A stretch of 64,000 nucleotides of DNA from Bacilli bacterium. GTDB lineage: Bacteria > Bacillota_I > Bacilli_A > RFN20 > CAG-826. A program made the position numbers and the translations under genes. The stretch is from positions 29,417-93,416 of the forward strand of contig JAKSVF010000001.1 of the NCBI GenBank assembly GCA_024408235.1, written 5' to 3'. The notes below the pieces were generated by a model. It saw only the letters and a list, made by a program, of their open reading frames with translations. It was not told where the DNA came from and made no database searches. This document shows positions 7,079-49,338 of the stretch, piece after piece. How positions within the stretch are numbered: position 1 is the first letter of the stretch; each line of letters starts with the position of its first letter.

Positions 7079-8560
7079 ATGAAGAAATATATCTTGGCTG
7101 TAGACCAGGGCACCACATCGACACGTGCCATTTTAATTAACAAAAAGGGCGAGGAAGTATACAAAGCTCAGCGTCCTGTCGATTGCTATTTCCCAAAAGC
7201 GGGATGGGTTGAACAAAGCGCGGACAACATCTGGGTTTCGGTAGTTGATGTCATCAACGAGCTCATGATTGTGAGCAGCGCTAAATGGGAGGAGATTGCC
7301 GGCATTGGTATAACCAATCAGCGTGAGACTACCATCGTGTGGGACAAGTCAACCGGAAGAGCTATCCACAACGCCATCGTTTGGCAATCAAAGCAAACAC
7401 AGAAAATCTGTGACCGTTATGAGAAAAAGAAGACGTTTATAGCTGATAGGACAGGCCTTAGGTTAAACCCATATTTCTCCGCGTCTAAAATCAGATTCAT
7501 TCTTGAAGCCGTACCAGGCGCTGAGGAGAAAGCCAAGAAAGGCGAGCTGATGTTCGGAACAATCGAGACATGGCTTATCTACAAGATGACTAACGGGGCA
7601 GTTCATGCAACTGATGTATCTAATGCCTCGCGTACTGCGATATTTAATATATATGATATGAAATGGGATGAGGAACTTTGCAAGCTCTGGAAGGTCCCAA
7701 CCTCTATGTTGCCTGAAGTAAAAGATTCTTCCTGTGACTTTGGCGAAGCTTCATTCTTCCCTGGCCACGTCCATATCTATGGCGTTGCAGGAGACCAGCA
7801 GTCTGCCTTATTTGGCCAATGCTGTTTTAAAGAAGGCGAATCAAAAAACACATATGGAACCGGTTGCTTCATGCTCATGAATACCGGCGAGAATCCAATC
7901 AAAACCAAATCCGGCTTATTAACTACAGTCGCTTGGCGAATCAACGGCAAGACAACTTACGCCCTAGAAGGTTCAGTCTTCATTGGCGGTGCTGTAGTTC
8001 AGTGGGTCCGTGATCAGACTAGATGGATTGAAGACTCAAGAGATTCTGAGTACTATGCATCAAAAGTGAAAGACACGGCGGGAGTGTACTTTGTACCTGC
8101 TTTCGTTGGATTAGGAACCCCATATTGGGATGATGATGCTAGAGGCGCAATATTCGGTCTTACAAGAGGCGCTGATAGACATCACATCACTAGAGCGGCC
8201 ATCTATTCAATTGCTTATCAATCCAAAGATGTAATTGATACCATGAGGAAAGACGCCAACCTAGATCTCCCTGTTCTGAAAGTTGATGGCGGCGCATCTG
8301 CAAACGCAATGCTTATGCAGTTCCAATCAGATATTCTTCAGTGTGAGGTCCGAATCCCTAAGAACGTTGAAACAACGGCCTTAGGCGCCGGTTACTTAGC
8401 TGGTCTTGCCTGCGGATTCTGGAAAGACTTAGCAGAAATTGAGAAGAACGTGGGTATCCAAAGACGTTTCTTCCCGACAATGGATCCAACTGAGGCTGAT
8501 AAACTTTGTCGCGGATGGGCGAAAGCCGTTATTGCTACGCGTGCATTCAAGACCGAGTAA
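7079..8560 (+). CDS. glpK: Glycerol kinase
   Basis: N-terminus MKKYILAVDQGTTSTRAIL and an FGGY-family sugar-kinase signature throughout. A TATAAT sits about 12 nt upstream. Confidence 0.92.
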   Translation: MKKYILAVDQGTTSTRAILINKKGEEVYKAQRPVDCYFPKAGWVEQSADNIWVSVVDVINELMIVSSAKWEEIAGIGITNQRETTIVWDKSTGRAIHNAIVWQSKQTQKICDRYEKKKTFIADRTGLRLNPYFSASKIRFILEAVPGAEEKAKKGELMFGTIETWLIYKMTNGAVHATDVSNASRTAIFNIYDMKWDEELCKLWKVPTSMLPEVKDSSCDFGEASFFPGHVHIYGVAGDQQSALFGQCCFKEGESKNTYGTGCFMLMNTGENPIKTKSGLLTTVAWRINGKTTYALEGSVFIGGAVVQWVRDQTRWIEDSRDSEYYASKVKDTAGVYFVPAFVGLGTPYWDDDARGAIFGLTRGADRHHITRAAIYSIAYQSKDVIDTMRKDANLDLPVLKVDGGASANAMLMQFQSDILQCEVRIPKNVETTALGAGYLAGLACGFWKDLAEIEKNVGIQRRFFPTMDPTEADKLCRGWAKAVIATRAFKTE

Positions 8561-8588
8561 TATTAGAATCACCCTATAGTGTAGGTGT

Positions 8589-10982
8589 ATGGTAGATAAC
8601 AAATATTTAGAAAAACTAAAAAATGCAGTCGTGATTGCTCCTCGTGAACTTCACGACTCTTTCTTGCGCATCAAGAACGTGCATCCGGATTATGATTTCA
8701 AAGTTATGGACATCGAGGCCTTTGTCTCTATGTTCACATATCAATATGATGATAGGGCAGTTCAAGATCTCTTAGAAAGAGAGTATCCATATAGACGTGC
8801 GCTTGAGATGTTGAAGCTTATGTCATCCAAGACTTGTGGCACTCTTTTGGACGAAGAAGAAAAGCAAATCTGTCATCAGTTGAAGACCGATTACTATTTA
8901 TACCCCGTCGCATACCCTGAAAGAACTTTCTTGAACAAGACAGTTGTGATTGCTGGATATCATTATGACGAATTCATTAAGACATATCTTAAAGATATAA
9001 AAATTGAAGAAGTCATTAGAATCGATGAGGAACCTATCAGCAATCCTAGCCGCGATTATTATTCCTTTTCTGATATCTATGAAGAGGTTCATTATCTTTT
9101 CAATGCGATTGCTGAGGACATAGAAAAAGGCACTGATATAAATAATATTTATATTCTCGGTGCCGATGAGAACTATGACATGCTTTTCGACGAATTCGGA
9201 AGACATTATGGCTTTGAAGTGGAAGGCCCAAATCCTTGTGATCTATCTCACTCCAAAACTTTCTGCCGCTATATAGTCATGAAGACCGAAGGAGTTGGAG
9301 AAGACATTTTTGACAAACTCGTTGAAGAAGGTTATCCGATTGAAGATATCGAAGCTCTCGAAAAAATAGTTCTAAGATATACAGGCGTAATGGGAAGCCC
9401 TGATTACGATTTGAAGACGATTGTCGACATCTGCAAGACAAAATCCTCCCATAAGGTCCATAAGGATAATGTAGTTAGACGATTAACGTCGTTTGTGGCT
9501 CCTGAGGGCGCGCACGTCTATATCGTTAACTTCTCCATGGGTGCATTCCCTAAAGTGTCTGAAGAAGGCTCTTATCTAACAGACGAGAAATGCGAAGTTC
9601 TTGGATTCTTAACAAGCAAAGATAAAAATGAGGAATCGAAGAAAGAACTTTATGATTTACTCGTTTCCAATAAAGTTAAATACATCTCATTCAAGAAGAC
9701 GGCGTTCGGTTCGGAATTCTTTGAGTCATCATTTGTAGGAAACCTCGAGATGAAGGAGATTAAATCCCCTGTCTCTAAATATGAGTATTCAGACGATAGA
9801 GGCGCTTGGTTCCTCTCAATGATGAAGGATCAGTATCGCAATTATTTGATTGTGGATAAGAGATTAAGAGAATGGGAAAAGGCGGTAGAAGTGCCTGATT
9901 ACTGCTCTTATGATTACTCTTTTAAAGGGTTTGACATCGACTCCAAGTATCTAAAGAGAGATTATTCGCCAACTAGCGTAAAGAAATATAATTCTTGCCC
10001 ATTCTCGTATTACGTCAACAAGGTCTTGGGCATCAATAGCTTCCGCAGTAACTTTACCGCTCGAGCGGGTGAGATATATCACACATTCCTCTCTGATTAT
10101 TACAACGATAGATTCTTTGATGAAAACCTCTCTTGGGAGAAGGCGGTTTCTATCACGGAAGGAGATGAGCAGTTCTCTAATAAAGAATTGTTATTCTTAG
10201 ACATTATTCATGAATACGCGATTAAGGCTCTAGAATTCCACAAAACTCATGAAGCTGAGATTAAGAATCCGACAATCTCCACTGAATCATCATTTAGACA
10301 GAGACTTGAAAAGAATAGAGACGTACAAATAAACGGCCGCTATGACAAGATCATGGAATTTGGTGAAGACCAGCAATATTACTGTGTCATTGACATCAAA
10401 ACAGGCGGGGAGAGATTCGACCAATCCAAATTATATTTCGGTTTGTCCATTCAATTGCCATTCTACGCCTACTTTGCAAAGCATGACGACAGGTTGAAAG
10501 ACAAGAAGCTTGCCGGTCTATTCATATCACCGGTATTAAGTGTGGACTATAAGAGCGATGGTAAGAAAACATATCAGGAAATCATCGACTCATCATTCAA
10601 ACTCGATGGCGTATTCCTTTCCGAAAAGGATGCATTGCTATCACTTGATCCATATTATGGTGGCTCAACATATATCAAAGGCTGCAAAACTAACAAAGAC
10701 GGTAATTTCTCTGAAAAATCAAAGGGAGAATTTGGTCGCGTTAAAAATGCTGATCAGTTAAACGCATTAGCGGATAGAGCTGAAGAAGTTGTTCTAGACG
10801 TCGATAAGAACGTTATGGAAGGCAACTTCGACATTTCTCCAATTCAGATTGGAAATGAGGCCTCTGCATGTGAGAATTGCGACCTTAGAGCAATTTGTTT
10901 TAGAAATATTAAAGACATAAGACGTTTGGCAAAACCAAAAGGTCTAGAAGATGAGGAGGAAGAAAATGGCGTGGACAGATAA
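8589..10982 (+). CDS. addB: ATP-dependent helicase/nuclease subunit B (AddB/RexB type, Fe-S PD-(D/E)xK nuclease)
   Basis: Position immediately upstream of addA. C-terminal Cys cluster (CENCDLRAICF) and a RecB-like nuclease region. The length of about 800 aa is typical of compact RexB. Confidence 0.7.
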   Translation: MVDNKYLEKLKNAVVIAPRELHDSFLRIKNVHPDYDFKVMDIEAFVSMFTYQYDDRAVQDLLEREYPYRRALEMLKLMSSKTCGTLLDEEEKQICHQLKTDYYLYPVAYPERTFLNKTVVIAGYHYDEFIKTYLKDIKIEEVIRIDEEPISNPSRDYYSFSDIYEEVHYLFNAIAEDIEKGTDINNIYILGADENYDMLFDEFGRHYGFEVEGPNPCDLSHSKTFCRYIVMKTEGVGEDIFDKLVEEGYPIEDIEALEKIVLRYTGVMGSPDYDLKTIVDICKTKSSHKVHKDNVVRRLTSFVAPEGAHVYIVNFSMGAFPKVSEEGSYLTDEKCEVLGFLTSKDKNEESKKELYDLLVSNKVKYISFKKTAFGSEFFESSFVGNLEMKEIKSPVSKYEYSDDRGAWFLSMMKDQYRNYLIVDKRLREWEKAVEVPDYCSYDYSFKGFDIDSKYLKRDYSPTSVKKYNSCPFSYYVNKVLGINSFRSNFTARAGEIYHTFLSDYYNDRFFDENLSWEKAVSITEGDEQFSNKELLFLDIIHEYAIKALEFHKTHEAEIKNPTISTESSFRQRLEKNRDVQINGRYDKIMEFGEDQQYYCVIDIKTGGERFDQSKLYFGLSIQLPFYAYFAKHDDRLKDKKLAGLFISPVLSVDYKSDGKKTYQEIIDSSFKLDGVFLSEKDALLSLDPYYGGSTYIKGCKTNKDGNFSEKSKGEFGRVKNADQLNALADRAEEVVLDVDKNVMEGNFDISPIQIGNEASACENCDLRAICFRNIKDIRRLAKPKGLEDEEEENGVDR

Positions 10983-13900
10983 TCAAAAACTAGCTATCGA
11001 TTCCCGTGAGGGCAACTTCCTCGTATCAGCTGGAGCGGGTTCCGGTAAGACTGCTGTTTTGACACAGAGAATTACGGATATCATCGCCAATAAACAGGCT
11101 GAGATTTCTGAGTTCTTAGTTTTAACCTTCTCAAACAAAGCCGCTCATGAAATGAAAACAAGAATCCGCAAATCATTGAAGAAAAACGGAATGATTGAGG
11201 CATCTGAACAAGTAGAACTGGCAGATATCACAACTTTTGACGCTTTTGCTCGAAAGGTTGTTATTAAATACGCAGATTTCCTTGGCGTTGATCCTAACTT
11301 CAATGTCATCGATGATACTTATCTAGAATCATTTAAGCGAGACCGCATTGAAGAACTTATTGAAATGTTTATTGCAAGCGATCCTAAGTTCAGAGAAATG
11401 ATGAAACATTTCTGCATAAAGGATGATAGACACGTAATCGAACTGATTTCCAAGATTCAGAAGTTTGCCGATAAGTTCTCCAATAGAGGGAAGGTCTATC
11501 AGATGCTCGCTAGAAATGTGGTAGACAAAGAATTTGTTGATGTGTGCATCGACGTTCTTTATGAGGACATCAATGCTCATGTGCATGAGGCAATTGATCT
11601 TACAGACCATTACCAGGATGAGAATCTCGCTGATATCGATAGAACGTTGATTGAATGCTTTGCCGATCTAGGCTCATATGATGCCTTCTTTGAAAAAGCC
11701 AAGCTTTCGAAGAGCAACAAAGAACTTCAATTCAAGAGGCTTTCCAAGACATTCACCACAGACGAGATGACGAAGAGCGTGCGCAAGAACACAAAGGATT
11801 TGCTCAATGGCTATATTGACCTTGTTCTTTCGTATGGTGACTCAACGAATCAAAGGGCGAGACTTGCAGAGACTCTTGAAGACATTGCTCCATTGATTAG
11901 ATTGTCTATAGAATTGGACACTATTCTTGAAGCGTATAAGATTGCTACATCATCATGGACGTTCTCTGATATTTTCTCTATGGCCTGTAGAGCCGTCGCT
12001 AACGAAAACATAAGACAAGAGATTCGTTCAAAATATAAATTCATCATGCTGGATGAATACCAAGACACAAACCAGCTTCAAGAAGATTTCATCGGTGCAA
12101 TTGCGAATAACAACACGTTTGCGGTGGGAGACATAAAGCAGTCCATCTATCGTTTCAGAAACGCAGAACCATCAATTTTCTCCGGTAAGTTCAATAGATA
12201 CGGAAGAAATGAAGGCGGAACTCTCATCAAACTTCAAGACAATTTCCGTTCTAGAAAAGAGGTTGTAGACGACATCAACAACATATTTGGAGCATGTATG
12301 TCAAACGAACTTGGTTCGGTAGATTATTCTGACGGACACTGTTTCAACTGGGGCAACAAAGCCCTATATAGCGCGACATGTAGTGATGAGCACAATCTCG
12401 ATTGGATTATCTATGAAGACACAAATAAAAATTCACGATTAACCGATCCGGAAAGAGAAGCGATGGTCATCGCTAATGACATCATTTCAAAAATCGAGAG
12501 CCATTACCAAGTGCTTGGTGGTGACGGGAAGATGAGGGATTGCACCCCATCAGATTTCGCGATTCTCATTTCTCGAAAGTCAAATTTCTCAGCATTCAAG
12601 CGAGTGTTTGCCGAAGCCAAGATTCCTTTAGCGGTTTCTGAGGATGCAGACCTTTCAAGCGACAACGTTTCCATGACTTTTGTCTCGCTGCTAAGACTCT
12701 TCAATTCTATCAACGGAACTGATAAGTATGACTCTGATATTGAGAAATTCTCATATGTTTCATTAATGAGAAGTTACCTATTCTCAAAGCCTGACAAGGA
12801 AATCTTCGAATCTATAAAATCCGGTGCATATAAAGTCTCGGAATTATTTGCAAAGGTCCTTGAAAACAGGGATCGTTTATACACGATGTCCGTTAAGGAT
12901 GCGACCATTGAAATTCTTCATATGTTCCCGTTTGTCGATAATCTTAAAAAGATTGGAGACGTTAAGGCGAATTATGAGAAGTTGAAATCAATAGTAAACG
13001 TTGCTGCAAGCATCGATTCGGTTGGAGCATCTTTCCCTGAGTTCGTTAAATACTTCGACGATCTTGAAGAATATGGCCTTCAGATGAAAGTGAAATCTTC
13101 TGGAGAAGCAGGCGGTGGAGTGCAGCTTATGTCCGTCCATGCCTCAAAAGGTCTTGAGTTCCCGATTATCTATTGTCCTGATTTGGCAAGAAAGGCCAAT
13201 AAAGATGACTCTAAGGGCATGTTCGCTTTAAGCGATCACTATGGACTTGCATTGCCAAAGGCCAAGTCTGATGAATACCCAAAGAACATGCTTCATTACC
13301 TCATCTCCGAGGAAGACGGAGCTGAAGCGAACAATGAATTCTTGAGACTTTTCTATGTCGACTTAACTCGTGCAAAAGAGAAGATTATCTTGGTATCCAA
13401 GAAACATAAAGATTTCATTTATGAAAGAATCAATAGCTGGCAGATCTTAAAGGTAACCACGAAAGTTAATGAAAAAGGGGAAACCGTTTATAATTCTTCG
13501 CTCCAAAATTGCGATTCTTTTGAGAAGTATCTAGCTTTAGCAGATCAACCTCTCAGAAAGATTGAAGTAGAAGTTAAACAGCCTCAAGAACTTAAAATTG
13601 GCGAGGTAGAAGTCAGAGATGTACCTGCCCCTGAATTCCGTTCAATAAAGGTTGAAGCGGTCGTTAAAGAACGCAAAAAAGCGTCAAAAACATCTGTTGA
13701 GCCTGTGGATGAAGGCGCACTTGCCTATGGCACCCGCCTTCACCGTCTATTAGAAGTGGTTGATTTCAAGACAAAAGACACATCATTCATCTTTAGCGAG
13801 AAGGAGAGAGCGACAATTGATAGAGTTCTTGCGCTTCCTGTATTTGACGATATTGCTAATGCTAAGGTATATCACGAATATGAGTTCTATGATGAAGATG

Positions 13901-28740: not shown

Positions 28741-29328
28741 ATGAAACGTGGATTGTTGATTATTATGTCAGGACCTAGCGGTGTCGGGAAAGGCACAGTT
28801 AGACAGAAAGTTATGGAGGATGAGACACTCAACCTCGCATATTCCATTTCCATGACTACACGCGGTCCACGCGCTGGTGAAGAAAACGGAAGAGAGTATT
28901 TTTTCGTCACTAAAGAAGAATTTGAGAAGAACATCAAAGAGGGCAACCTCCTTGAATATAACTTCTTTGTATCCAATTATTACGGTACACCAAAGAGTTA
29001 TGTCGATCAGTTAAGGAATGAAGGAAAGAACGTTCTTTTGGAAATCGATGTCAACGGCGCTAAAACTGTCATGGCTAAGTGCAAAGAGATTGGCGACGAC
29101 GTCGTTTCATTCTTCATCCTTCCTCCATCAATGCAGGCTTTAGAAAATCGTATCAGGGGCAGAAGAAGTGAGCCTGAAGACGTCATTCAAGAAAGACTTT
29201 CCAAGGCAGCAGCCGAAATTGACCAATCATCTAATTACAAATATCCGGTTGTTAATGACAACCTTGAAGAAACGGCTAAACTTATCCGCGATATCATTGT
29301 AAAAGAAAGTAACAAAAATTCTGATTAG
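28741..29328 (+). CDS. gmk: Guanylate kinase
   Basis: SGPSGVGKGT P-loop and a GMP-binding region (YSISMTTR). Confidence 0.92.
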   Translation: MKRGLLIIMSGPSGVGKGTVRQKVMEDETLNLAYSISMTTRGPRAGEENGREYFFVTKEEFEKNIKEGNLLEYNFFVSNYYGTPKSYVDQLRNEGKNVLLEIDVNGAKTVMAKCKEIGDDVVSFFILPPSMQALENRIRGRRSEPEDVIQERLSKAAAEIDQSSNYKYPVVNDNLEETAKLIRDIIVKESNKNSD

Positions 29329-29361
29329 TTAATATGCTCAACATAGTTGTATAATTGAATT

Positions 29362-31563
29362 ATGCAATTAGTGAGCGTCTTAACACAGTATGGAGCTCGT
29401 GCATTAGCGCGAACTTTTTCTTATGTGTACTTTGGCAAGAAAAAAGTTGCTGAGCGTTTTAGAGTAAGAATCAACTTTAACGGTAAAGAAATCATGGGCT
29501 TTGTAACAGAAGTTCAGGTTGTCGATAAAACCCAAAATGAGCTTGAACAGGAGTGCGGATACGCAATAAAAGAGATTTACGAGTCAGACATCATTGATGA
29601 GGAACCTCTTATTAATGATGAATTGATGGAACTCGCCAATCAGGTTGCCGATTATTACATGGCGCCTCTTATCTCTGTTCTTCAGGCAATGCTCCCAAAG
29701 ACATTATCGCCAAAGATGTCATCATTGAAGGGTCCTAAAATCGCATATGAGAAGTGGGCCAAGGTTATAGATCAAAATGAAGACGGCCTTACACCAAAAC
29801 AAATAGAAATGTTGAGGCTCATCGCATCGAATGGTGATGTTCTCAAGAAAGAGTGCGGATCACCTGCGATTCTTAAAGCGTTAGAAGATAAGAAGAAAGT
29901 GCTTATTTTTAATAAGGAGAAGATGAGATTCGTTCTTCCTCCTGAAGAAAGAGAAAATCCGCATGAGATGTCTCTTGAGCAAAGAAGCGCATATGACACA
30001 ATTCTTTCTGCGCAGAAAGATGTTGTACTACTTCAGGGTGTTACTGGTTCTGGTAAAACCGAGGTATATCTTAGAGTATCGGAGAAATATCTCGAGGATG
30101 GAAAGACTGTTTTAATGCTTGTTCCCGAGATTAATCTCACCCCTCAGATGGTCGAGTATTTTTCACGCAGATTCGGGCCAAAAGTCGCGATTCTTCATAG
30201 CGAGTTGACCCCAGGGGAAAGATATGACGAATATCGTAGAATCGCGCAAGGCAAGGCTCAGATTGTTGTGGGGGCTAGAAGTGCGGTTTTCGCTCCGTTA
30301 AACAACATCGGATTAATCATCTTAGACGAAGAACACGTCGAGTCATATAAACAGGATAATTCTCCATATTACCACGCGAGAGAAGTCGCCATTATGAGAG
30401 GCAAGATCTCTAATGCAAAGGTGTTGCTTGGTTCTGCTACGCCTACTCTTGAGACAAAAGCTCGCGCTATGAGAGGCGTCTATGGTTACGCTGAGATGAA
30501 AAATAGAGTCAATAAGCGTCCTCTTCCTAAGACTCAGATCATAGATTTATGCAATAGATTTAACTACGATAAAAAATCCGAAAAGATCACAAAGCCTGTT
30601 TTACAGGCTATCCAAGAAAGAATCGGAAGAAAAGAACAGTCATTACTTCTCATCAACAGACGTGGATACTGGACCGCCATAAATTGTCCTCAATGCGGAT
30701 ACATTTTCGCTTGCCCTCAATGCGGAGGCAATCTTACATACCATGTTCACGACCACATGCTCAAATGCCATCACTGCGGTGAAGTCCAGATTCATCCTGA
30801 CAAATGTCCTGGCTGTGGTTATACCAAATTAAGAAGAGTTGGATATGGGACGGAACGAATTGTTGAGGAACTTAAAGAGATTATTCCAGGTTGTAGAGTG
30901 GCAAGAATGGATTCTGATGTCAGCCAAGTTTCCAAAAAAATGGAAGAGACTTTGAAGGCATTTAGAAACGGTGAATACGATATCCTTGTCGGAACTCAAA
31001 TGATTGCAAAAGGACATGACTTCCCTAACGTCACGCTATCAAGTGTTGTTATGGCAGATATCGGATTATCTCTGCCTACATATCGCGCGGCGGAGAGAAC
31101 CTTCCAGCTGATCGCGCAGGCTGTTGGAAGAAGTGGTCGCTCATCAAAAGAAGGTGTCGCTTTCATACAGACTTATAACCCTAAACATTATGCCATAACT
31201 CTCGGTGCTACCCAGGATTTTGAAAGATTTTTCATTCGCGAAATGAATGAGAGAAAGCTTACCCAATACCCTCCATATGTCTATTTAATCCTACTTGAAT
31301 TCGCTTCTGCTAATGAAGAAAAATGCGTAAATGCAGCTTATGACATTAAGACAGCTCTAGAGGATAAAAACCTCGACACATTGACGGTTGTTGGACCGAT
31401 TACCCCGTTCTATTCGATGATAGCAGGAAAACATAAGAGAGTCGTTCTTCTAAAAATGAAGAAACGCGAACCTGTTGTCGAGGCCTTAAAAGACCTTTTA
31501 TCATCGCCTATTTCTTCAGGCTCCGTCGACATTTCAATCAACGTTGACCCATTAGATTATTAA
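29362..31563 (+). CDS. priA: Primosomal protein N' (replication restart helicase PriA)
   Basis: GVTGSGKTEVYL Walker A, DEEH box, and a Cys-rich zinc region CPQCGYIFACPQCG...CHHCG...CPGCG. Confidence 0.93.
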   Translation: MQLVSVLTQYGARALARTFSYVYFGKKKVAERFRVRINFNGKEIMGFVTEVQVVDKTQNELEQECGYAIKEIYESDIIDEEPLINDELMELANQVADYYMAPLISVLQAMLPKTLSPKMSSLKGPKIAYEKWAKVIDQNEDGLTPKQIEMLRLIASNGDVLKKECGSPAILKALEDKKKVLIFNKEKMRFVLPPEERENPHEMSLEQRSAYDTILSAQKDVVLLQGVTGSGKTEVYLRVSEKYLEDGKTVLMLVPEINLTPQMVEYFSRRFGPKVAILHSELTPGERYDEYRRIAQGKAQIVVGARSAVFAPLNNIGLIILDEEHVESYKQDNSPYYHAREVAIMRGKISNAKVLLGSATPTLETKARAMRGVYGYAEMKNRVNKRPLPKTQIIDLCNRFNYDKKSEKITKPVLQAIQERIGRKEQSLLLINRRGYWTAINCPQCGYIFACPQCGGNLTYHVHDHMLKCHHCGEVQIHPDKCPGCGYTKLRRVGYGTERIVEELKEIIPGCRVARMDSDVSQVSKKMEETLKAFRNGEYDILVGTQMIAKGHDFPNVTLSSVVMADIGLSLPTYRAAERTFQLIAQAVGRSGRSSKEGVAFIQTYNPKHYAITLGATQDFERFFIREMNERKLTQYPPYVYLILLEFASANEEKCVNAAYDIKTALEDKNLDTLTVVGPITPFYSMIAGKHKRVVLLKMKKREPVVEALKDLLSSPISSGSVDISINVDPLDY

Positions 31564-31621
31564 TACCCATTTTTGATAATTTTATCAAATTTTACTATTC
31601 CTCTATTCGTGGCATTTTTTC

Positions 31622-31639
31622 ATGTGATATAATCACATA
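31622..31639 (+). promoter_or_regulatory. Extended -10 promoter (TGaTATAAT at 31625-31633) embedded in an inverted repeat ATGTGAT-ata-ATCACAT
   Basis: TG plus a TATAAT hexamer lies between 7-bp inverted arms; GAGGA RBS and the ATG at 31657 lie downstream. Confidence 0.4.
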
Positions 31640-31656
31640 TGAATCGAGGATTCAAT

Positions 31657-32166
31657 ATGATCACCATTTCTTTATTAGGCTTAGACCAATACGTGGCTGG
31701 CCACTACAGCAAGACGCACACAGAAAATCTCGCTCAGCTTTTCGAAGTTGATGAAGACGCAGTATCTTTCTATGCGCCAAATTCCATCATTATTCACAAT
31801 GGAGTAGAACAGACTTCATGGAACACCGAAGTCAGAGTTCACCTTCCTACAAAGTTCGCACCACTTGAAGAGAAGGTTGCCGATTACCTTATCCAGACCC
31901 TTAAGGAAATCACAATTAACATGAACATAACATTCGAGTATTACGAAGAGGCTAGCCACTACGAATACCAGAATGATGAATACCCTAAGTTCATCAGAGC
32001 CGACAACATCGTCGACATGGATGACCCATACGCAGAAGAAAACGAAGAGGAATACGATGGACCAACTCCAGAGCCTTACCTCGGAAATATATTCGCCGGC
32101 AAAGAGGAAGAGTTAGACGCTAAATATAGCGCTGATGAAGAATACCTCACTGAAGAAGATAAATAA
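31657..32166 (+). CDS. Hypothetical protein with an acidic C-terminus (occupies the usual def/fmt position of this conserved locus)
   Basis: ORF with GAGGA RBS 7 nt upstream. D/E-rich C-terminal 60 aa; no recognisable catalytic motif. Confidence 0.55.
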   Translation: MITISLLGLDQYVAGHYSKTHTENLAQLFEVDEDAVSFYAPNSIIIHNGVEQTSWNTEVRVHLPTKFAPLEEKVADYLIQTLKEITINMNITFEYYEEASHYEYQNDEYPKFIRADNIVDMDDPYAEENEEEYDGPTPEPYLGNIFAGKEEELDAKYSADEEYLTEEDK

Positions 32167-32179
32167 TGGGGAGAATAGT

Positions 32180-33499
32180 ATGCAGACATTAGATATTTGT
32201 GAAGCAGTATTAACAGACGTTCTTGCCAATGACGTCTCATTCGCTGACGCTCTCAAAAAGGTCTTTAAATCAAGCGTTGACCTCCGCCCTCAGAGAAATA
32301 CAGTCGCATCTTTGGTTGGATGTGAACTTCGTCACCATCTTCTCTTCTCTTATCTCTTGAAGCCAATTGAAGTTTTGACTGATGAAGAAAAGAGACTTGT
32401 CTCTTTATGTCTTGCTGAGTATTACTTCTATCAGAGACTCAACAAAGATGAAGTCGATAGCCACCTCCTTGCAAAACTTGGAGAAGAAAAAATTGAACTC
32501 CTCAAACCGTTATTCGATAAATCGGGTAAGCCTGAGGAATACATCCCAGCTGAGATATCAAAATCAAGCAACAAGTACTTATCATTAAGATACAACACCC
32601 CAGAATGGGTTCTTAAGATCATTGAGCATTATGGTTTCGGAACAACGTACAAAGTATTAAGAAAAAATGCTCAGCAGAGAATCTCGACCGTCCGTGTTAG
32701 AGAAGGCTTTGATAAGAATACAATAGATCCTAACGCTTTCAAAGGCTCACCTGTGCCAGGTATTTATTACTATCAGGGCAAGGAATCCCTAAGAAAACTA
32801 GAAGCCGCCAAAGAAGGCAAGATCTTCAATGAAAGACTAGCGACTAAATTTATCTTAGATAAATACAGAGTCAGCGATCCTTCAGAACTTTTCATCTTTG
32901 ATGGAAATGGCGATGGTTCAATCTTCAAAGAAGCAATCGAAACCTACGGCACAAAGATCGGAATGAACTTTGGAGTCTATTCCGAAGACAAGTATGCAGA
33001 TGTCGCTAGAATGATTAGAACCGAAGGCTTAAAGAACATTAACTACTTTGCAGCTGATCCAACATTCCTTGATGCAGCTATCTCTCGCCCACAGGATTTG
33101 GTAATCGTATCGCCTAAATCCACAAACTTTGATTTGATTAGAGAACAGCCAGATTATCTTCTTCACTTCAAGAAGAGCGAAATGGATGAACTCTTTAGAA
33201 AAGAGAAAGAAGCGCTTGAAGGCGTTTCTAAGGTTGTCGCAGATGATGGACTCCTCATCTACATGGTTTACACAATCAGCAAGAAAGAAGGCCACCAGAC
33301 GATCTCCGAATTCTTGCTCAACCACACAGAATTCAAGTTCGTTAAAGAAGAACAGCTCTTCCCTCAGGATGAACTCGACACAGCAATGTACTACGCTGTT
33401 CTCAAAAAAGAAGAGAATGCTATCATTCTTGATAACCCAGCATCATTGGCTAACCCATTAGAGGGAACGGCCTTCGCTATGTCAGCAAAGGAAAGATAG
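32180..33499 (+). CDS. Sun/RsmB-family protein (NusB-like N-domain plus Rossmann-fold MTase domain), predicted to be catalytically inactive
   Basis: Domain order and conserved context (priA...sun-rlmN-stp-stk). Aligns to the RsmB C-terminus, but the SAM motif DxCAAPGGKT reads FDGNGDGSIF, the PC motif reads SPKS, and the TC catalytic Cys reads VYTISK. Confidence 0.6.
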   Translation: MQTLDICEAVLTDVLANDVSFADALKKVFKSSVDLRPQRNTVASLVGCELRHHLLFSYLLKPIEVLTDEEKRLVSLCLAEYYFYQRLNKDEVDSHLLAKLGEEKIELLKPLFDKSGKPEEYIPAEISKSSNKYLSLRYNTPEWVLKIIEHYGFGTTYKVLRKNAQQRISTVRVREGFDKNTIDPNAFKGSPVPGIYYYQGKESLRKLEAAKEGKIFNERLATKFILDKYRVSDPSELFIFDGNGDGSIFKEAIETYGTKIGMNFGVYSEDKYADVARMIRTEGLKNINYFAADPTFLDAAISRPQDLVIVSPKSTNFDLIREQPDYLLHFKKSEMDELFRKEKEALEGVSKVVADDGLLIYMVYTISKKEGHQTISEFLLNHTEFKFVKEEQLFPQDELDTAMYYAVLKKEENAIILDNPASLANPLEGTAFAMSAKER

Positions 33500-33503
33500 A
33501 ATC

Positions 33504-34553
33504 ATGAAGAAGAATCTCTTTGGTTTTTCGCTTCCTGCTTTAGAAGAAGAAATGACAAGCCGTGGAGAAACTCGTTATAGAGCAAGACAGCTTTATGAGT
33601 GGATTTACGTTAAAAAAGTCTATGACTTCTCGTTAATGACAGATATATCCAAGAATTTCAGAAAAGTTCTTGAGGAAGAATATTGCTTGGACTTGCCAAC
33701 AATTTTCACACGCCAAAATGCCGCTGACGGAACCGTCAAGTTATTACTTGAGATGGAAGATCATTCAAAGGTTGAGACGGTCCTTATGAGATATGATTAC
33801 GGCAATGTCATCTGCGTATCGTCTCAAGTCGGATGCTCAATGGCTTGTGCTTTTTGCGCCTCCGGAATTCTAGCCAAGACAAGAAACCTTACTGCATCGG
33901 AAATGGTAGGGGAAGTCATTCTTATGAACCAGTTACTTGCTGAAGAGGGTGAGAATATCTCCCATATCGTTGTAATGGGAACCGGTGAGCCATTTGACAA
34001 TTACGATAACGTAATGTCATTTGTGAGAGTCATGAATGAGCAAAGGGGCCTTGCGATTGGTGCAAGACACATAACCGTCTCCACATGCGGCCTTGTCGAT
34101 GGCATCAGGAAATACGCTAACGAGGGAATTCAAATCAATCTTGCGATTTCTCTCCATGCCCCAAATGATGAAATCAGAAATCAGATAATGCCAATTTCAA
34201 GAAAATACAACATGGATGAGCTTCTCGATGCAGTTAAATACTATGTTGAAACAGCAGGGCGCAGAGTCACTTTTGAATATATCATGATCAAAGGTCTTAA
34301 CGACTCAATTGAGAATGCTGATGAACTTGCTAGAAGACTCAGGGGAATTTTCTGTTACGTTAACCTCATTCCGCTGAATCCAGTTAAAGAAAAACCGTTT
34401 GAAAGAAGCGAAAATGTCCACGCTTTCAATAGGCGTTTAAACGATAAAGGTGTCAACTGTACTGTAAGAAAAGAGTTCGGTACAGATATTGATGCCGCTT
34501 GTGGACAACTCAGAGTTAAATATGAGAGGAAGGGGAAGAACTATGGCAACTAA
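33504..34553 (+). CDS. rlmN: 23S rRNA m2A2503 / tRNA m2A37 methyltransferase, radical SAM
   Basis: Radical-SAM Cys cluster CSMACAFC, the MGTGEP motif, and a C-terminal CGQL. Confidence 0.92.
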   Translation: MKKNLFGFSLPALEEEMTSRGETRYRARQLYEWIYVKKVYDFSLMTDISKNFRKVLEEEYCLDLPTIFTRQNAADGTVKLLLEMEDHSKVETVLMRYDYGNVICVSSQVGCSMACAFCASGILAKTRNLTASEMVGEVILMNQLLAEEGENISHIVVMGTGEPFDNYDNVMSFVRVMNEQRGLAIGARHITVSTCGLVDGIRKYANEGIQINLAISLHAPNDEIRNQIMPISRKYNMDELLDAVKYYVETAGRRVTFEYIMIKGLNDSIENADELARRLRGIFCYVNLIPLNPVKEKPFERSENVHAFNRRLNDKGVNCTVRKEFGTDIDAACGQLRVKYERKGKNYGN

Positions 34554-35295
34554 ATACCGTGGAAGCTATGGATATAAAGTCCATCCAGGCAAAGTTCGCA
34601 CAAACAACGAAGACCAGGCGTCCGTTTTGATGAATCCAGATGGTGAAATCCTTCTTGTCGTTTGCGATGGAATGGGCGGATCACAGAAAGGTGATGTTGC
34701 CTCAAGAATGGCGATCGACATCATAACCAAATCATTCCCCTCAAAGAAAAAACATGTTTTTGCGAGCGCTGATAAGGCTTGGCTTACAAAAATTGCTAAG
34801 AAGGCAAATTCCGCTATCTACGAAACAGCCGATAAGAATCCTAGGTATAAAGGTATGGGAACTACGCTTGTTGCGGCCCTTATCTCTAATAAGAGGATGA
34901 TTGTTGTCTCCATTGGCGATAGCCGTTGCTATTGTTTAAAAGACGGTGAAATTAAACAACTGACAGAGGATCAGACCTATGTTCAGATGTTAATCAACAC
35001 CGGAAAGATCACTCCAGAAGAAGCCCTTACTCATCCAAAGAGACACGTTCTTTTGAACGCGATGGGCATCTATCCGTCATTATCAATCGACATCAAACAA
35101 TATAAATACCGTGGGGAAACAATTTTATTATGCACTGATGGTTTATATAACCAGGTTCCAGCGGATGAGATAAAGGCAATTCTCTCAAGCGATGAGAGAG
35201 TTGACCAGAAACCAATATCACTAATCATCGCCGCTAACGCACACGGCGGAAGCGACAACATTGGAGTTGCTGTTTGGGAGACTGAAGCACAATGA
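34543..35295 (+). CDS. stp: PP2C-family Ser/Thr protein phosphatase
   Basis: VVCDGMGG and GGSDNI motifs. AGGGGAAG RBS. Overlaps rlmN at its start and stk at its end. Confidence 0.88.
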   Translation: MATKYRGSYGYKVHPGKVRTNNEDQASVLMNPDGEILLVVCDGMGGSQKGDVASRMAIDIITKSFPSKKKHVFASADKAWLTKIAKKANSAIYETADKNPRYKGMGTTLVAALISNKRMIVVSIGDSRCYCLKDGEIKQLTEDQTYVQMLINTGKITPEEALTHPKRHVLLNAMGIYPSLSIDIKQYKYRGETILLCTDGLYNQVPADEIKAILSSDERVDQKPISLIIAANAHGGSDNIGVAVWETEAQ

Positions 35296-36173
35296 TAGAG
35301 ATCGGAAGTAAAATAGACGGTCGCTATCGTGTAACCGGTCGTATCGCTCACGGCGGTATGGCAGATGTCTACGAGGGCTTTGATTCACTATCCCATCGCT
35401 ATGTCGCAATCAAGGTCATGCGAGTCGATTGCATGGCTGACCCAGAAAATATCAAGCGTTTTAGAAAAGAGTGCGAGGCATGCGCTTGTTTTAATTCGCC
35501 TCATATCGTCCGCATCTATGGTCAGGGCACTGTTGATGGTGGACGCCCTTACATGATTAACGAGTATGTTGAGGGCAGAACTTTAAGAGATAAATTGAAC
35601 ATGGTTGAAAACCATTGTTTAAGCGCTAGAGAAGCATGTGAATTCATGGTGCAGCTTTGCCTTGGAATGCAATACGTCCATGATCATGGAGTTGTTCATC
35701 GTGACATCAAGCCGGATAACATGTTCTACGCCGCAGACGGCTCTGTCAAAATCACCGACTTCGGAATTTCCAGTCATGTCGGCGAAAAAGCAAATAGAGA
35801 AGCCATTCCTGGAACGCTATTCTATACGGCTCCAGAAATCATCACAGGAGGAGACCCTCTCATCCAATCTGACATTTTTTCGATGGGTGTAGTTTTCTAT
35901 GAGATGCTAACGGGCAAACTCCCTTTCAGCGGGGAAGATAAGAAAGCTGTCGTAAGCGCAATCGTTAAAAAGAGCGCTCCAATTCCATCAGATGAGTATT
36001 CTTCGATTCCTAAAGCGGTTGATAGAATCGTCATTAAATGCCTTCGCAAGAGACATCAAGAGAGATATCAGAACTGCAATCAACTTAGAAGAGCGATCGA
36101 ATCTGTCCTTAAGGACAAGAATGCTTTTAAGGAAAAGAAATCACTCTTATCAAAGATATTTGGATTCAAATAA
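35292..36173 (+). CDS. stk: Ser/Thr protein kinase, kinase domain only (no TM segment or PASTA repeats)
   Basis: Hanks motifs VAIK, HRDIKPDN, DFGIS, APE. The 293-aa length ends right after the kinase domain. Confidence 0.85.
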   Translation: MIEIGSKIDGRYRVTGRIAHGGMADVYEGFDSLSHRYVAIKVMRVDCMADPENIKRFRKECEACACFNSPHIVRIYGQGTVDGGRPYMINEYVEGRTLRDKLNMVENHCLSAREACEFMVQLCLGMQYVHDHGVVHRDIKPDNMFYAADGSVKITDFGISSHVGEKANREAIPGTLFYTAPEIITGGDPLIQSDIFSMGVVFYEMLTGKLPFSGEDKKAVVSAIVKKSAPIPSDEYSSIPKAVDRIVIKCLRKRHQERYQNCNQLRRAIESVLKDKNAFKEKKSLLSKIFGFK

Positions 36174-36176
36174 ACA

Positions 36177-36842
36177 ATGGGAAATTATAAGAACAAAACA
36201 ACATATATAGCCCCATCTATTCTCGCTGCAGATCCGAATAGAATCGAAGACGAAATAGCGTTGATAAAGACTTCGAAGGCTGCATTCGTCCATATAGACA
36301 TAATGGATGGAAAATTCGTTAGAGCGACGACTTTTAATGATGATTTCGTAAAAAGGGTAATCGACGTTTCTGATCGTCTAGTCAAGGATGTCCATATAAT
36401 GGTGGAAGAGCCGTGGATTATCGGTCCTAAGTTTGCAAAGATGGGTGCATCTATTGTCACGTTCCACTATGAGGCGTGCGGAGATGACCAGGTCGTTTTT
36501 AAGACTATCAAAGCCATAAGAGACGCCGGCTCTAAAGTCGGAATATCAATCAAGCCTAATACGCCAGTAGAAGTATTGAATCCTTTTCTTGACCAAATCG
36601 ACCTTGTTCTTATTATGACGGTAGAACCTGGCGCTGGTGGCCAATCGTTCATGGCAGATATGATGGTGAAAGTTAAGAAACTCTCATCAATTGATGGCCG
36701 TAAGTTTTTGATTGAGTGCGATGGTGGAATAAAAGACACCACCGTCTCAATCGTTAAAGAAGCTGGAGCCGACGTTTTGGTCGCTGGTTCATATTTATTC
36801 GGTCATAAAGATTTTAAAGAAAGAGTGGAGACCCTTTTATAA
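36177..36842 (+). CDS. rpe: Ribulose-phosphate 3-epimerase
   Basis: IAPSILAAD N-terminus, HIDIMDG, and a TIM-barrel epimerase signature. Confidence 0.9.
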   Translation: MGNYKNKTTYIAPSILAADPNRIEDEIALIKTSKAAFVHIDIMDGKFVRATTFNDDFVKRVIDVSDRLVKDVHIMVEEPWIIGPKFAKMGASIVTFHYEACGDDQVVFKTIKAIRDAGSKVGISIKPNTPVEVLNPFLDQIDLVLIMTVEPGAGGQSFMADMMVKVKKLSSIDGRKFLIECDGGIKDTTVSIVKEAGADVLVAGSYLFGHKDFKERVETLL

Positions 36843-37516
36843 TGCCTATTTCATATTTCATCTTATTTACTGCCGTGCCTGCTATCATGTTAGCGGCCTT
36901 CCTAATCACCGTTTTCTTCGGTTACAAAAAAGAAGGAGAGGAATACTCCCTCAAAGCTTATTTGACTTATGAGGCCTTCGAGAGAATGAATCCGGCTACA
37001 AGGGTTATAGCGCGCATACTATATTTTATATATTTAGCCTCGCTACTTCCTTTCTATGCCTATGTCATTAAATATAGTGGTGGATATAACGATCAACTCG
37101 TATTATTCTCCGTCTTCAACTTATTGGCAGGAGTTGTAGCAGTTGGTATAAGCGTTGCCCTTACGTATGTAAAAGCAACATTGCCTCAGCCTCATCTATT
37201 CCTTGCGATAGGTCATGGGCTGGTGGTTGTCGTAAATGCGTTCACAATGTCTAGCGTATTGAATCTCATCAGAACGGCTAACATGGTAAGTTCAAGATAT
37301 GACATATTCATATTGATCGTCATCGTTCTCCTTATACTCATAGCGACATTTGTCATCCTCTTATTCGTGAAGAGGGATGTCTATTCTTGGGAATATGTAG
37401 AGAAAGAAGGTAAGAGAAGTTTCTTTGCCTTAGCGTTCACGGAATGGTTAGTAGTATTCTTCAATCTTGCCGTCTACTTAATAAGCGTCATCTCATTATT
37501 TGTTATCAATTGCTAA
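36842..37516 (+). CDS. Hypothetical polytopic membrane protein (6 predicted TM segments)
   Basis: Hydrophobicity pattern; ATGA overlap with rpe. Confidence 0.5.
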   Translation: MPISYFILFTAVPAIMLAAFLITVFFGYKKEGEEYSLKAYLTYEAFERMNPATRVIARILYFIYLASLLPFYAYVIKYSGGYNDQLVLFSVFNLLAGVVAVGISVALTYVKATLPQPHLFLAIGHGLVVVVNAFTMSSVLNLIRTANMVSSRYDIFILIVIVLLILIATFVILLFVKRDVYSWEYVEKEGKRSFFALAFTEWLVVFFNLAVYLISVISLFVINC

Positions 37517-37529
37517 AAGCGATAAAAAA

Positions 37530-37556
37530 GAAGCGGGGTTCCCGCTTCTATTTTTC
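37530..37556. terminator. Bidirectional intrinsic terminator
   Basis: GAAGCGGG-GTT-CCCGCTTC 8-bp stem flanked by an A-run upstream and a T-run downstream. Serves the + membrane-protein gene and the convergent rpmB. Confidence 0.7.
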
Positions 37557-47347: not shown

Positions 47348-48721
47348 ATGGCAAATTTTAAGAAACTCGCGAAAGGCTATGAGAATAAAGCCGTCGCAAC
47401 ACTCAAACAGTTCATCAAAATCAATTCAGTTTATGATGCAACAACTTCAAAAGAAGGACAGCCTTACGGATGGGGAGTCAAGAAGGCTCTTGATTTCGTT
47501 GGCAAAATCGGAAAAGACTTCGGCTGGAAAGTCAACACGGTCAATGGCTATTGCACTGAGTTAACAATCGGAGAAGAAGGACCGCTCATCGGAATCTATG
47601 GCCACTCTGATGTTGTTCCAGCAACAGGTTCATGGACAACAGGCCCATTCAACCCTGATGAAAGAGATGGCGTCATCTATGGTAGAGGCGCCGCAGATGA
47701 TAAAGGCCCACTCGTTGCCGCAATCTATGCTACAAAATTACTTCAGGATGCTGGATTACTCAAAGGCTTTAGAGTCAAAATCGTTTCAGGTGGAGATGAG
47801 GAAAGAGGATCGTCCTGCCTCGATTATTATTTCAAGAAATTCAAAGGCGAGCATGCTAAATACGCATTCACACCAGATGCAGATTACCCATTAATCTACG
47901 CTGAAAAAGGAATGAGATCATATGTACTCACAAAGACATTAGATCTCGGTCCTATCACCGCTATGGACGGCGGAGTTGTTACCAATGCAGTCTGCGACTC
48001 CCTCTTAGTCACTTTGAAGACAAACAAGAAATTCGAAGAATACTTAAAGACTAATAACGTCCCATGCGACATCTCATCCAACGAGTTTATCACAGTTGTT
48101 AGATTCAAAGGAAAGTCAGCTCACGGCTCAACTCCAGAGAAAGGCATCAACGCTGCCGGCATCGCATTTAAGGCGATCGGCGAATTCTTCAAGATCAAAG
48201 ATTTACTCGACCTCGTTCCAGTCATCAATTCCGGAGACGGATCCTACTGGGGCGGAAACGTCACGTCAAAAGAACTTGGAGCGTGCTCATATAACTACGG
48301 CATCTTCAAGTACGAGAAGAGAACAAAACTCCTATCAATGACTCTTGACTTCAGATTTGGCGAAGACGCTAAGAGAGATGACCTTGTTGCTGCGTTAGTC
48401 GCAAAGACAGGACTCAAAGCAACTCCTTTAGGAGAAGGCCACGCTCACCTCTTATTCGATAAGAAATCACCGTTGGTCTCTACGCTTATGAAGGCTTATA
48501 AGAAAGAGACATTTGACTTATTTGCTAAGCCACTCGCAATCGGCGGTGGAACATATGCTAAGGAAGCTCCAAATTGCGTTGCATTCGGCGCTGTCTTCCC
48601 AGCAAATAGAGAAGCTCAAGGCAACATGCATGGCGTTGACGAATTCATCAGCCGCAAGGATTTCATGAAGGACATCGCAATCTACGCTCGTGCTATTTAC
48701 ATGTTAGGTAATTTAAAGTAA
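47348..48721 (+). CDS. pepV: M20-family dipeptidase (PepV/Sapep-like)
   Basis: HSDVVPA, GRGAADDKG and the catalytic Glu region; length of about 457 aa. AGGAG RBS. Confidence 0.85.
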   Translation: MANFKKLAKGYENKAVATLKQFIKINSVYDATTSKEGQPYGWGVKKALDFVGKIGKDFGWKVNTVNGYCTELTIGEEGPLIGIYGHSDVVPATGSWTTGPFNPDERDGVIYGRGAADDKGPLVAAIYATKLLQDAGLLKGFRVKIVSGGDEERGSSCLDYYFKKFKGEHAKYAFTPDADYPLIYAEKGMRSYVLTKTLDLGPITAMDGGVVTNAVCDSLLVTLKTNKKFEEYLKTNNVPCDISSNEFITVVRFKGKSAHGSTPEKGINAAGIAFKAIGEFFKIKDLLDLVPVINSGDGSYWGGNVTSKELGACSYNYGIFKYEKRTKLLSMTLDFRFGEDAKRDDLVAALVAKTGLKATPLGEGHAHLLFDKKSPLVSTLMKAYKKETFDLFAKPLAIGGGTYAKEAPNCVAFGAVFPANREAQGNMHGVDEFISRKDFMKDIAIYARAIYMLGNLK

Positions 48722-49338
48722 TGAGAGGCCGCTTCAAGAAATGGGCGGCTCCATACTTAGATGAGCATGATGGAGTCGTTCTTAAAGAAATAAAAACCGA
48801 AGATCCATATTTCCAGGCTGAAAAGATCTATTTAGAGGTCGGATCAGGCAAAGGCGATTTCGTATTGGGGCTTTCGACTAAAAGAGAAGGGAACTTTCTC
48901 GCTTTAGAAAGAGATGTCTCAATCTCTGGAATACTCGCTAAGAAGGTAGTGGAATCCGAAATCAAGAACATCAGAGTCATGAACGAAGACTTTGACAATG
49001 TCTACGAGGCGATTAATGGAAAACTCAAGTTTGACATCATCTTCTTAAACTTTTCTGACCCATGGCCAAAGAAGAAACACTGGAAGAGAAGATTAACAAC
49101 TAGAGTTCGCCTCCAGAATATGATGAATATCCTCAAAGACGGCGGAGAGATAAGAATCAAAACCGACAATGACGATTTATACGCTTTCACTAAAGAAGAG
49201 GCTGAGACCCTTCCTTTGGTAAAAATATTCGATACCGATAATTACGAATTCGATGACAGTGATGATGCGATGAGCGAATACGAGAGAAACTTCCGTTCAA
49301 TCGGCAAAAACATCAATCGCCTCATCTATAGAAAGTAG
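48721..49338 (+). CDS. trmB: tRNA (guanine46-N7)-methyltransferase
   Basis: LEVGSGKGDF SAM-binding motif, about 205 aa. ATGA overlap with pepV. Confidence 0.88.
   Translation: MRGRFKKWAAPYLDEHDGVVLKEIKTEDPYFQAEKIYLEVGSGKGDFVLGLSTKREGNFLALERDVSISGILAKKVVESEIKNIRVMNEDFDNVYEAINGKLKFDIIFLNFSDPWPKKKHWKRRLTTRVRLQNMMNILKDGGEIRIKTDNDDLYAFTKEEAETLPLVKIFDTDNYEFDDSDDAMSEYERNFRSIGKNINRLIYRK

Follow-up and report, generated by a model that had tools for sequence, protein, structure and literature searches.

The 64,000-nucleotide stretch of DNA analyzed here (the window; part of contig JAKSVF010000001.1, assembly GCA_024408235.1, from a genome recorded as 'Bacilli bacterium') carries at 32180-33499 of its forward strand a gene for a protein that has the fold and the operon position of RsmB, the methyltransferase that forms 5-methylcytosine at position 967 of 16S rRNA (m5C967), and that has lost the means of carrying out this reaction. 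The loop that binds S-adenosylmethionine (SAM), the ribose-binding Asp and the four active-site residues are all gone; with these losses the protein, judged by its sequence, is not capable of forming m5C967 by the known mechanism. Its status as a pseudoenzyme is solid: cofactor-binding and catalytic residues have been lost naturally with the fold kept, and the gene has been retained over the long term under purifying selection. As to what the protein does, the reading that we favor on balance is that it would serve as a non-catalytic factor in 16S rRNA or pre-30S biogenesis, paired with a DUF1904-like protein encoded directly upstream.

The fold and domain structure of RsmB

A preliminary description of the locus, made by a model from the DNA sequence, had claimed an intact open reading frame (ORF) and an RsmB architecture, with a NusB-like N-terminal domain followed by a Rossmann methyltransferase domain. 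Both claims are borne out. The gene and the parts of its product are:

32180..33499, forward strand: RsmB-like pseudo-methyltransferase ORF, 439 amino acids plus stop codon, uninterrupted
32168..32175, forward strand: ribosome-binding site GGGGAGAA, visible in the sequence itself, with 4 nt between it and the ATG at 32180
32180..32524, forward strand: N-terminal all-helical NusB-like domain, residues 1-115 (from model secondary structure, superposition on 1sqf and 1sqg, and conservation), with a conserved ELRHH element at residues 48-53
32525..32869, forward strand: linker and pre-methyltransferase alpha/beta domain, residues 116-230, basic (pI 9.7)
32585-32617, forward strand: conserved LRYNTPEW(x2)K linker motif, kept across the family; P141, W143 and K146 correspond to E. 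coli P146, W148 and K151
32870..33412, forward strand: Rossmann-type methyltransferase-fold domain, residues 231-411, lacking catalytic residues and free of Cys
33413..33496, forward strand: disordered C-terminal tail of low conservation, residues 412-439 (pLDDT < 50 for 414-439)

The start at ATG 32180 is favored over an upstream ATG at 32135 by the lengths of homologues (440-446 amino acids) and by their N-termini. An AlphaFold model built from 71 family sequences has a pLDDT of 90.4 and a pTM of 0.85, with only the final 26 residues disordered. Its best Foldseek match is full-length RsmB (E. coli Fmu, 1sqf), at TM 0.76-0.78 over 437 columns, and the next matches are RsmF/YebU, Nop2, NSUN6 and NSUN4; the succession of NusB-like N-domain, N1 domain and Rossmann methyltransferase domain is present at full length.

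Similarity at the level of sequence is weak but real. The RsmB-like protein fails all of the curated RsmB family cutoffs: the NCBIfam RsmB model PRK14902 finds it with E 1.6e-18 and 66.7 bits (cutoff 319), and TIGR00563 gives it 27.7 bits (cutoff 269). Comparison with the PF01189 profile, which the preliminary description had proposed as a check on motif loss, yields 23.3 bits (cutoff 27) over profile positions 47-165 and misses the region of motif I altogether; the loss is confirmed in the alignment with E. coli RsmB that is described below. A sequence search of the PDB matches the protein to 2yxl, the P. horikoshii Fmu homologue (E 7.6e-6), and its homology to RsmB is far beyond chance.

The C-terminal tail varies greatly in length. 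It comprises 28 residues in the window protein and 50-200 residues of Ala/Glu/Lys/Pro-rich low complexity in homologues P0030, P0031, P0045, P0046, P0049 and P0058. The longer homologues (up to 645 amino acids) were considered as fusions with the upstream partner and rejected as such: their extra length is C-terminal tail of this kind.

Loss of the catalytic and cofactor-binding motifs

Alignment with E. coli RsmB (sequence from NC_000913) locates the remains of four motifs:

32885..32920, forward strand: degenerate motif I ELFIFDGNGDGS, residues 236-247, in place of the SAM loop DLCAAPGGKT; the motif I Lys is gone
32954..32977, forward strand: degenerate motif II KIGMNFGV; the ribose-binding Asp (E. 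coli D277) is Asn263
33110..33154, forward strand: degenerate motif IV SPKSTNFDLIREQPD; D322 is Ser311, the Pro is Lys313 and C325 is Ser314
33248..33292, forward strand: degenerate motif VI GLLIYMVYTISKKEG; the nucleophile C375 is Tyr364, and G357, L359, Y361, T365 and E370 are kept

Motif I reads (E)LFIFDGNGDGS, and the E. coli motif I Lys (K260) falls on G244 or D245, depending on the alignment, at a position that is variable in the family. The Asn at motif II position 263 is found in 119 of 121 close homologues and has no conservation in the wider family. The DAPCS of motif IV has become SPKST (S311-P312-K313-S314-T315, nt 33110-33124), with the R-x-x-P-D downstream of it (R321, P324, D325) kept, and the TCS of motif VI has become VYT (V363-Y364-T365, nt 33266-33274). 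In the active enzymes the Asp of motif IV takes part in binding SAM and the cytosine, and the Cys of that motif in releasing the product. The preliminary description recognized each of these losses and erred in some of the particulars. The SAM loop is indeed lost, but FDGNGDGSIF, which was said to replace it, lies at 32897-32926 (it had been placed at about 32891-32926), the motif itself spanning 32885-32920. The Cys of motif IV, which was held to have become Lys, aligns with Ser314 even in the alignment that accompanied the claim (Lys313 replaces the Pro), and the residue that aligns with the vanished motif VI nucleophile is Tyr364, not Ile.

The paper on the NSUN6-tRNA structure (PMC5499824) reports strict conservation among RNA m5C methyltransferases at four places, the Lys of motif I, the Asp of motif IV and the two Cys, and a failure of mutants in the equivalent motif IV Asp to bind SAM; it also describes a role in RNA binding for the near-core motif. 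All four of these residues are replaced in the RsmB-like protein. Nor can realignment restore them, since the only Cys residues are those at positions 7, 48 and 77, all in the N-terminal domain, and residues 78-439 contain none: with a Cys-free methyltransferase domain, no alignment can recover a catalytic Cys. A frameshift that hides the real motifs, the other escape that had been contemplated at the outset, is excluded by the colinearity of the ORF with ~250 full-length homologues.

The DGNGDG stretch has the look of a surviving GxGxG SAM loop. This identification is rejected, the stretch being confined to the closest relatives of the window protein; the family consensus at the same place is L-Y-N-G-N-A-D-S-S. 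The use of SAM has not been lost generally: the RlmN encoded next to the RsmB-like protein keeps its Cys cluster, and the window also encodes, at 48721-49338, a TrmB-type methyltransferase.

A family-wide loss under purifying selection

The window protein is one of many. A word-indexed search finds 224 relatives, the 120 matches listed being 45-93% identical to it, and an exhaustive HMMER search over 1.84 billion cluster representatives (50% clusters) finds 109 clusters at E < 1e-30, 241 at E < 1e-10 and 966 at E < 1e-3, the top 150 representatives reaching down to 23% identity with full-length coverage. The state of the motifs across the family was judged from two sets, 120 close homologues and ~130 representatives of full length (23-51% identity), and no member of either set has the motif VI Cys or the Gly-rich SAM loop. 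A Cys remains at the motif IV position in nine of the distant representatives, and in none does the Asp of that motif; where the nucleophile used to be, the residue is free to vary and may be Pro, Asn, Asp, Phe, Tyr, Ser or Glu. Conservation among the representatives is distributed as follows:

Motif IV-VI half: 2.18 bits
C-terminal sheet: 2.11 bits
PxW linker: 1.94 bits
SAM-binding half, residues 231-300: 1.28 bits, the lowest of the folded regions

The survivors are for the most part residues held in common with canonical RsmB outside the cofactor site, namely P141/W143/K146, R321, P324-D325, G357/L359/Y361, T365, E370, F378-L379, Q392 and P395. Within the close subfamily, the old SAM half has invariant polar residues of its own: E236, N243, D245, S247, E251, N263, N286 and N288. 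The nearest canonical match to a profile of the distant members is P0311, in which DLCAAPGSKS, DAPCSG and STCT are intact and which also shares the Firmicute-type YLSIRF linker.

The preliminary description had taken the gene to be evidently under selection, and the comparison across relatives sustains it. The ratio of nonsynonymous to synonymous substitution (dN/dS) is 0.026 against related locus L001 (93% identity) and 0.056 against L004 (74% identity), values that are approximate, with dS near or beyond saturation, and that fall inside the range spanned by gmk, priA, rlmN, the kinase gene and glgC. The RsmB-like gene is under purifying selection comparable to that on its housekeeping neighbors.

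Homologues come from uncultured organisms of gut and digester metagenomes and are recorded under 'Bacilli bacterium', 'Bacillales bacterium UBA1744' and 'Tenericutes bacterium ADurb.BinA155'. Their annotation is split (P0007-P0041, P0270). In JGI records the protein is a '16S rRNA C967 or C1407 C5-methylase (RsmB/RsmF family)' or a '16S rRNA (cytosine967-C5)-methyltransferase', and at NCBI it is mostly a 'hypothetical protein', though one record, P0040, calls it '16S rRNA methyltransferase B'. Names that imply enzymatic activity are probably mistaken.

The rsmB slot

The operon that contains the RsmB-like gene is delimited by these features:

28741..37549, forward strand: operon context gmk, priA, DUF1904-like gene, RsmB-like gene, rlmN, PP2C phosphatase gene, Ser/Thr kinase gene, rpe, membrane protein gene
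31657..32166, forward strand: upstream partner gene, 169 amino acids from its MITI start, in the def-fmt position
33504..34553, forward strand: rlmN, radical-SAM 23S rRNA/tRNA methyltransferase gene (Pfam RlmN_N and Radical_SAM)
37529-37549: hairpin terminator closing the operon

In B. subtilis the corresponding Firmicute order is def-fmt-rsmB-rlmN-prpC-prkC-cpgA-rpe (PMC8359813). In the relatives of the window it runs NFACT, gmk, priA, small ORF, RsmB-like gene, rlmN, PP2C, Ser/Thr kinase, (rsgA), rpe, membrane protein, L28, with NFACT and L28 on the minus strand, and this arrangement is the same in 13 genome or assembly loci and in 64 further metagenome loci (885 kb, analyzed locally by tblastn). 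It is seen in 7 genome loci, in one 1.63-Mb contig of a metagenome-assembled genome and in the most distant members tested (25-28% identity); rlmN is the next gene downstream of the RsmB-like gene in 48 of 48 metagenome loci. The constancy of the slot and of the gene order establishes the RsmB-like gene as the positional orthologue of rsmB (yloM of B. subtilis) and confirms its claimed retention in a conserved rsmB locus. Translational coupling to the neighboring genes had also been claimed, and this is roughly right: the gap to the gene upstream is 13 nt, and rlmN starts 4 nt past the RsmB-like stop codon, as in the yloM-yloN arrangement of B. subtilis, with its ribosome-binding site inside the 3' end of the RsmB-like ORF. 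The genes do not, however, overlap.

The search for a canonical RsmB covered the window and ~1.1 Mb of related loci, which all represent this same neighborhood, and came up empty. Between priA and the RsmB-like gene there is no def or fmt, either in the window (29362-33499) or in related loci L001-L007 and L010-L080, and tblastn with E. coli Def and Fmt gives no match across ~1.2 Mb of related sequence made up of locus neighborhoods. The lineage may be one that dispenses with formylation of its initiator tRNA. RsmB, def and fmt have each been lost in various Mollicutes (PMC4014445).

The DUF1904-like partner

The linkage of the RsmB-like gene to a dedicated gene upstream is a point that the preliminary description missed. 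The partner is present in every related locus, at 36-68% identity, and is better conserved than the RsmB-like protein at equal distances; in the metagenome loci with enough upstream sequence, it is directly upstream of the RsmB-like gene without exception (58/58). It consists of a domain with the DUF1904/tautomerase-superfamily fold (residues 1-115), an acidic disordered linker or tail, and a C-terminal motif, [FY]-[LT]-G-[DN]-x-F, that is conserved in the alignment of orthologues and is followed by a helix. The 95 homologues of the partner include none with a functional name, the few with a named source being 'hypothetical protein' entries from 'Bacilli bacterium'. Sequence searches of the PDB with the protein and with its profile return spurious matches only. 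The relationship to DUF1904 emerges from weak matches to Pfam DUF1904 (PF08921) in 44 of 49 members (best E 4e-5; the window protein scores 15.7 bits, below the cutoff of 24.1) and from structure: the model (pLDDT 83) has a beta-alpha-beta tautomerase-like fold and its best Foldseek match is 4m1a, a DUF1904 structure, at TMt 0.82, with MIF and cis-CaaD proteins of the tautomerase superfamily next in rank.

The catalytic residue of tautomerases is an N-terminal Pro. The partner starts M-I-T-I and has no such residue; it also differs from DUF1904 proteins (PF08921; 4m1a, 1u9d) in falling below the Pfam cutoff and in carrying an extra tail, acidic and disordered, and a C-terminal motif that is conserved. 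That the gene might be left over from def or fmt was considered and rejected, given the tautomerase-like fold and the empty tblastn searches with E. coli Def and Fmt. The partner at locus L007 (~9396-9990) has in its acidic tail a Cys/His/Asp-rich insertion, CSCGHHHDDCDCDSDHCDCDSKDCDCDSED, that resembles a metal-binding stretch.

What the RsmB-like protein might do

The substrate of RsmB is naked 16S rRNA, which it modifies early in 30S assembly. The explanation that we favor builds on this: the RsmB-like protein would have been retained for a binding function already present in canonical RsmB, engaging 16S rRNA or the pre-30S particle as a chaperone, a placeholder or a checkpoint. An RNA-binding or assembly-chaperone role of this kind, which the preliminary description had also proposed, is plausible, the evidence for association with rRNA or assembly intermediates being indirect: the conserved surfaces outside the cofactor site that are shared with RsmB, and rlmN and rsgA as operon neighbors. 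That the protein should work as a pair with the acidic DUF1904-fold protein, which would have replaced def-fmt in the operon, is put forward more tentatively; the partner might be a subunit or a regulator, its acidic tail and C-terminal motif docking on the RsmB-like protein or regulating it.

Several observations weigh against this explanation. The equivalents of the Lys and Asp with which NSUN6 recognizes its flipped cytosine (PMC5499824) are also gone, and target recognition, if it has been kept, must differ from that of the active enzymes. The NusB-like N-domain is acidic, with a pI of 5.3 compared with 10.1 in E. coli RsmB, and the pI of the whole protein is 5.55. The polar residues that are invariant in the former cofactor pocket of the close subfamily (E251, N263, N286, N288) would also fit a new ligand, and near-saturated dS blunts the estimates of selection.

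A bolder version of the favored explanation holds that an entire ancient lineage of uncultured Bacilli with small genomes turned its 16S m5C967 methyltransferase into a non-enzymatic protein that forms a dedicated complex with the partner and acts at the P-site region of the 30S subunit (h31) or in initiation. We regard it as doubtful. If it were true, RsmB would have an essential-like, methylation-independent function tied to the formylation status of the initiator tRNA. That the loss of def-fmt and the loss of m5C967 chemistry are connected is, in any event, a possibility.

Four other accounts of the gene were weighed. The simplest, that it is a decaying relic, or an artefact of sequencing or assembly that hides the real motifs, might appeal to the very low scores with RsmB models, such as a PF01189 score beneath its cutoff; it has practically nothing left to it and is refuted by an intact ORF that recurs in ~250 independent full-length homologues from many assemblies, by dN/dS values of ~0.03-0.06, by a fold predicted with high confidence and by new family-specific motifs that are themselves conserved. 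Those same motifs invite a different interpretation, in which the protein is no pseudoenzyme and is instead a neo-functionalized enzyme or a ligand sensor, its remodeled pocket binding some other small molecule or nucleotide, or catalyzing a Cys-independent reaction on RNA. The old catalytic loops are conserved in new form in the close subfamily, as P-x-S-[ST]-N-F-D and Y-T-I-S-K-K-E-G, the eight polar residues listed above are invariant there, and the DGNGDG stretch of the window protein resembles G-x-G-x-G. However, the polar residues are not conserved in the wider family, in which this region is the most variable folded part of the protein and its loop is shorter; the former nucleophile position varies freely, and the GxGxG-like stretch is a property of the closest relatives. 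We judge this account to be distinctly unlikely.

A somewhat larger, still small, chance attaches to each of the two remaining accounts, which leave the protein without catalysis and give it another role. It may be an adaptor that works with the DUF1904-like protein away from the ribosome, as a NusB-like accessory in transcription or antitermination, or as a substrate or scaffold of the PP2C phosphatase and Ser/Thr kinase; the strict linkage to an acidic protein of tautomerase fold, the acidity of the N-domain and of the protein as a whole, and the presence of phosphatase and kinase genes in the same operon are all in keeping with this. What stays conserved of the parts shared with RsmB, however, is the PxW linker together with the motif IV-VI face, and in the RsmB family these border the RNA site; the operon is rich in genes for ribosomes and translation (rlmN and rsgA inside it, L28 adjoining), and searches of the literature turned up no known RsmB fold used outside RNA binding. 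Or the protein may be a redundant or sub-functionalized copy, an accessory in the manner of Trm6 beside Trm61, with a second and intact rsmB elsewhere in the genome making m5C967. Against this are the occupation of the ancestral rsmB slot, which makes the gene an orthologue rather than a spare, the failure to find canonical RsmB in the neighborhoods searched, the small size of the genomes (single contigs of 1.4-1.6 Mb) and the loss of RsmB from many reduced Mollicutes (PMC4014445).

Precedents and implications

With RsmB/Fmu/Sun itself (E. coli; B. subtilis YloM; structures 1sqf and 1sqg) the RsmB-like protein has in common the operon slot upstream of rlmN-prpC-prkC, the PxW linker, R-x-x-P-D, the G-x-L-x-Y strand and the Glu of E-E-N. 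It differs in having no SAM loop, no motif II Asp, neither Asp nor Cys in motif IV and no motif VI Cys, in scores that are far below the family cutoffs, in its acidic N-domain, and in having a DUF1904-like gene upstream instead of def-fmt.

The closest functional analogy to the role that we favor is provided by the trypanosome mitoribosome, where MRM (SpoU family) and RPUSD4 are naturally deactivated and kept as assembly factors (PMC7957421). These are homologues of rRNA-modifying enzymes with a disrupted cofactor or active site that have nonetheless been retained. They are organellar proteins of the SPOUT and pseudouridine synthase folds and their binding is proven by cryo-electron microscopy (cryo-EM), whereas the RsmB-like protein belongs to a free-living or gut bacterium and its binding to the ribosome is putative. 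Nearer in descent is NOP2/NSUN1, a member of the same NOL1/NOP2/Sun family and one of the structural matches, which has a non-catalytic function in ribosome biogenesis: a catalytically inactive form rescues rRNA processing (PMC9561284). NOP2, however, retains its enzymatic activity, and the inactive form was made by engineering; the RsmB-like protein is inactive naturally and irreversibly, and would act, if at all, on the small subunit.

Most single modifications of rRNA are dispensable, and the question of why bacteria keep their rRNA methyltransferases is open for that reason. Where purifying selection maintains a catalytically dead RsmB orthologue across hundreds of genomes, evolution has in effect knocked out the chemistry and nothing else, which suggests that the RsmB-like protein itself has a selectable role that is independent of methylation. 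Roles of this kind were shown earlier by mutation, in the case of NOP2, and by cryo-EM, in the case of the trypanosome mitoribosome factors. Literature searches yielded no description of a bacterial RsmB pseudoenzyme or of a bacterial example from the NSUN family, and nothing on UBA1744; in the searchable literature they likewise found no account of a family of bacterial NSUN-type proteins that have been inactivated naturally and have a partner of their own. On the practical side, the analysis yields a testable two-gene module, RsmB-like protein plus DUF1904-like partner, and exposes a problem of annotation, the proteins being 16S rRNA C5-methylases at JGI and mostly hypothetical at NCBI.

Other features of the operon and the window

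RsgA is a 30S assembly GTPase. Distant relatives have its gene (cpgA of B. subtilis) between the kinase gene and rpe (L013, 4776-5618; L015, 10390-11256), as do 7 of 34 metagenome loci; it is absent from the kinase/rpe junction (36173-36177) of the window and from that of the close relatives.

The PrkC of B. subtilis has a transmembrane segment and PASTA repeats. The PrkC-like Ser/Thr kinase of the window (35292-36173, forward strand; 293 amino acids) is a bare kinase domain with ~30 residues left over, which leaves no room for either. The ORF for the PP2C phosphatase (34489-35295, forward strand) has a listed TTG start that overlaps rlmN by 65 nt; since its homologues are ~250 amino acids long, the true start is probably the ATG near 34543 (MATKY...).

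Rfam identifies no 16S rRNA or other family within the window. The ORF at 18-5114 (forward strand, 1698 amino acids) has no Pfam match at E <= 1e-5. In one distant relative, L013, genes resembling JetA, JetB and JetC, of a Wadjet-type defence system, are found a few kb downstream, at 7912-12101.

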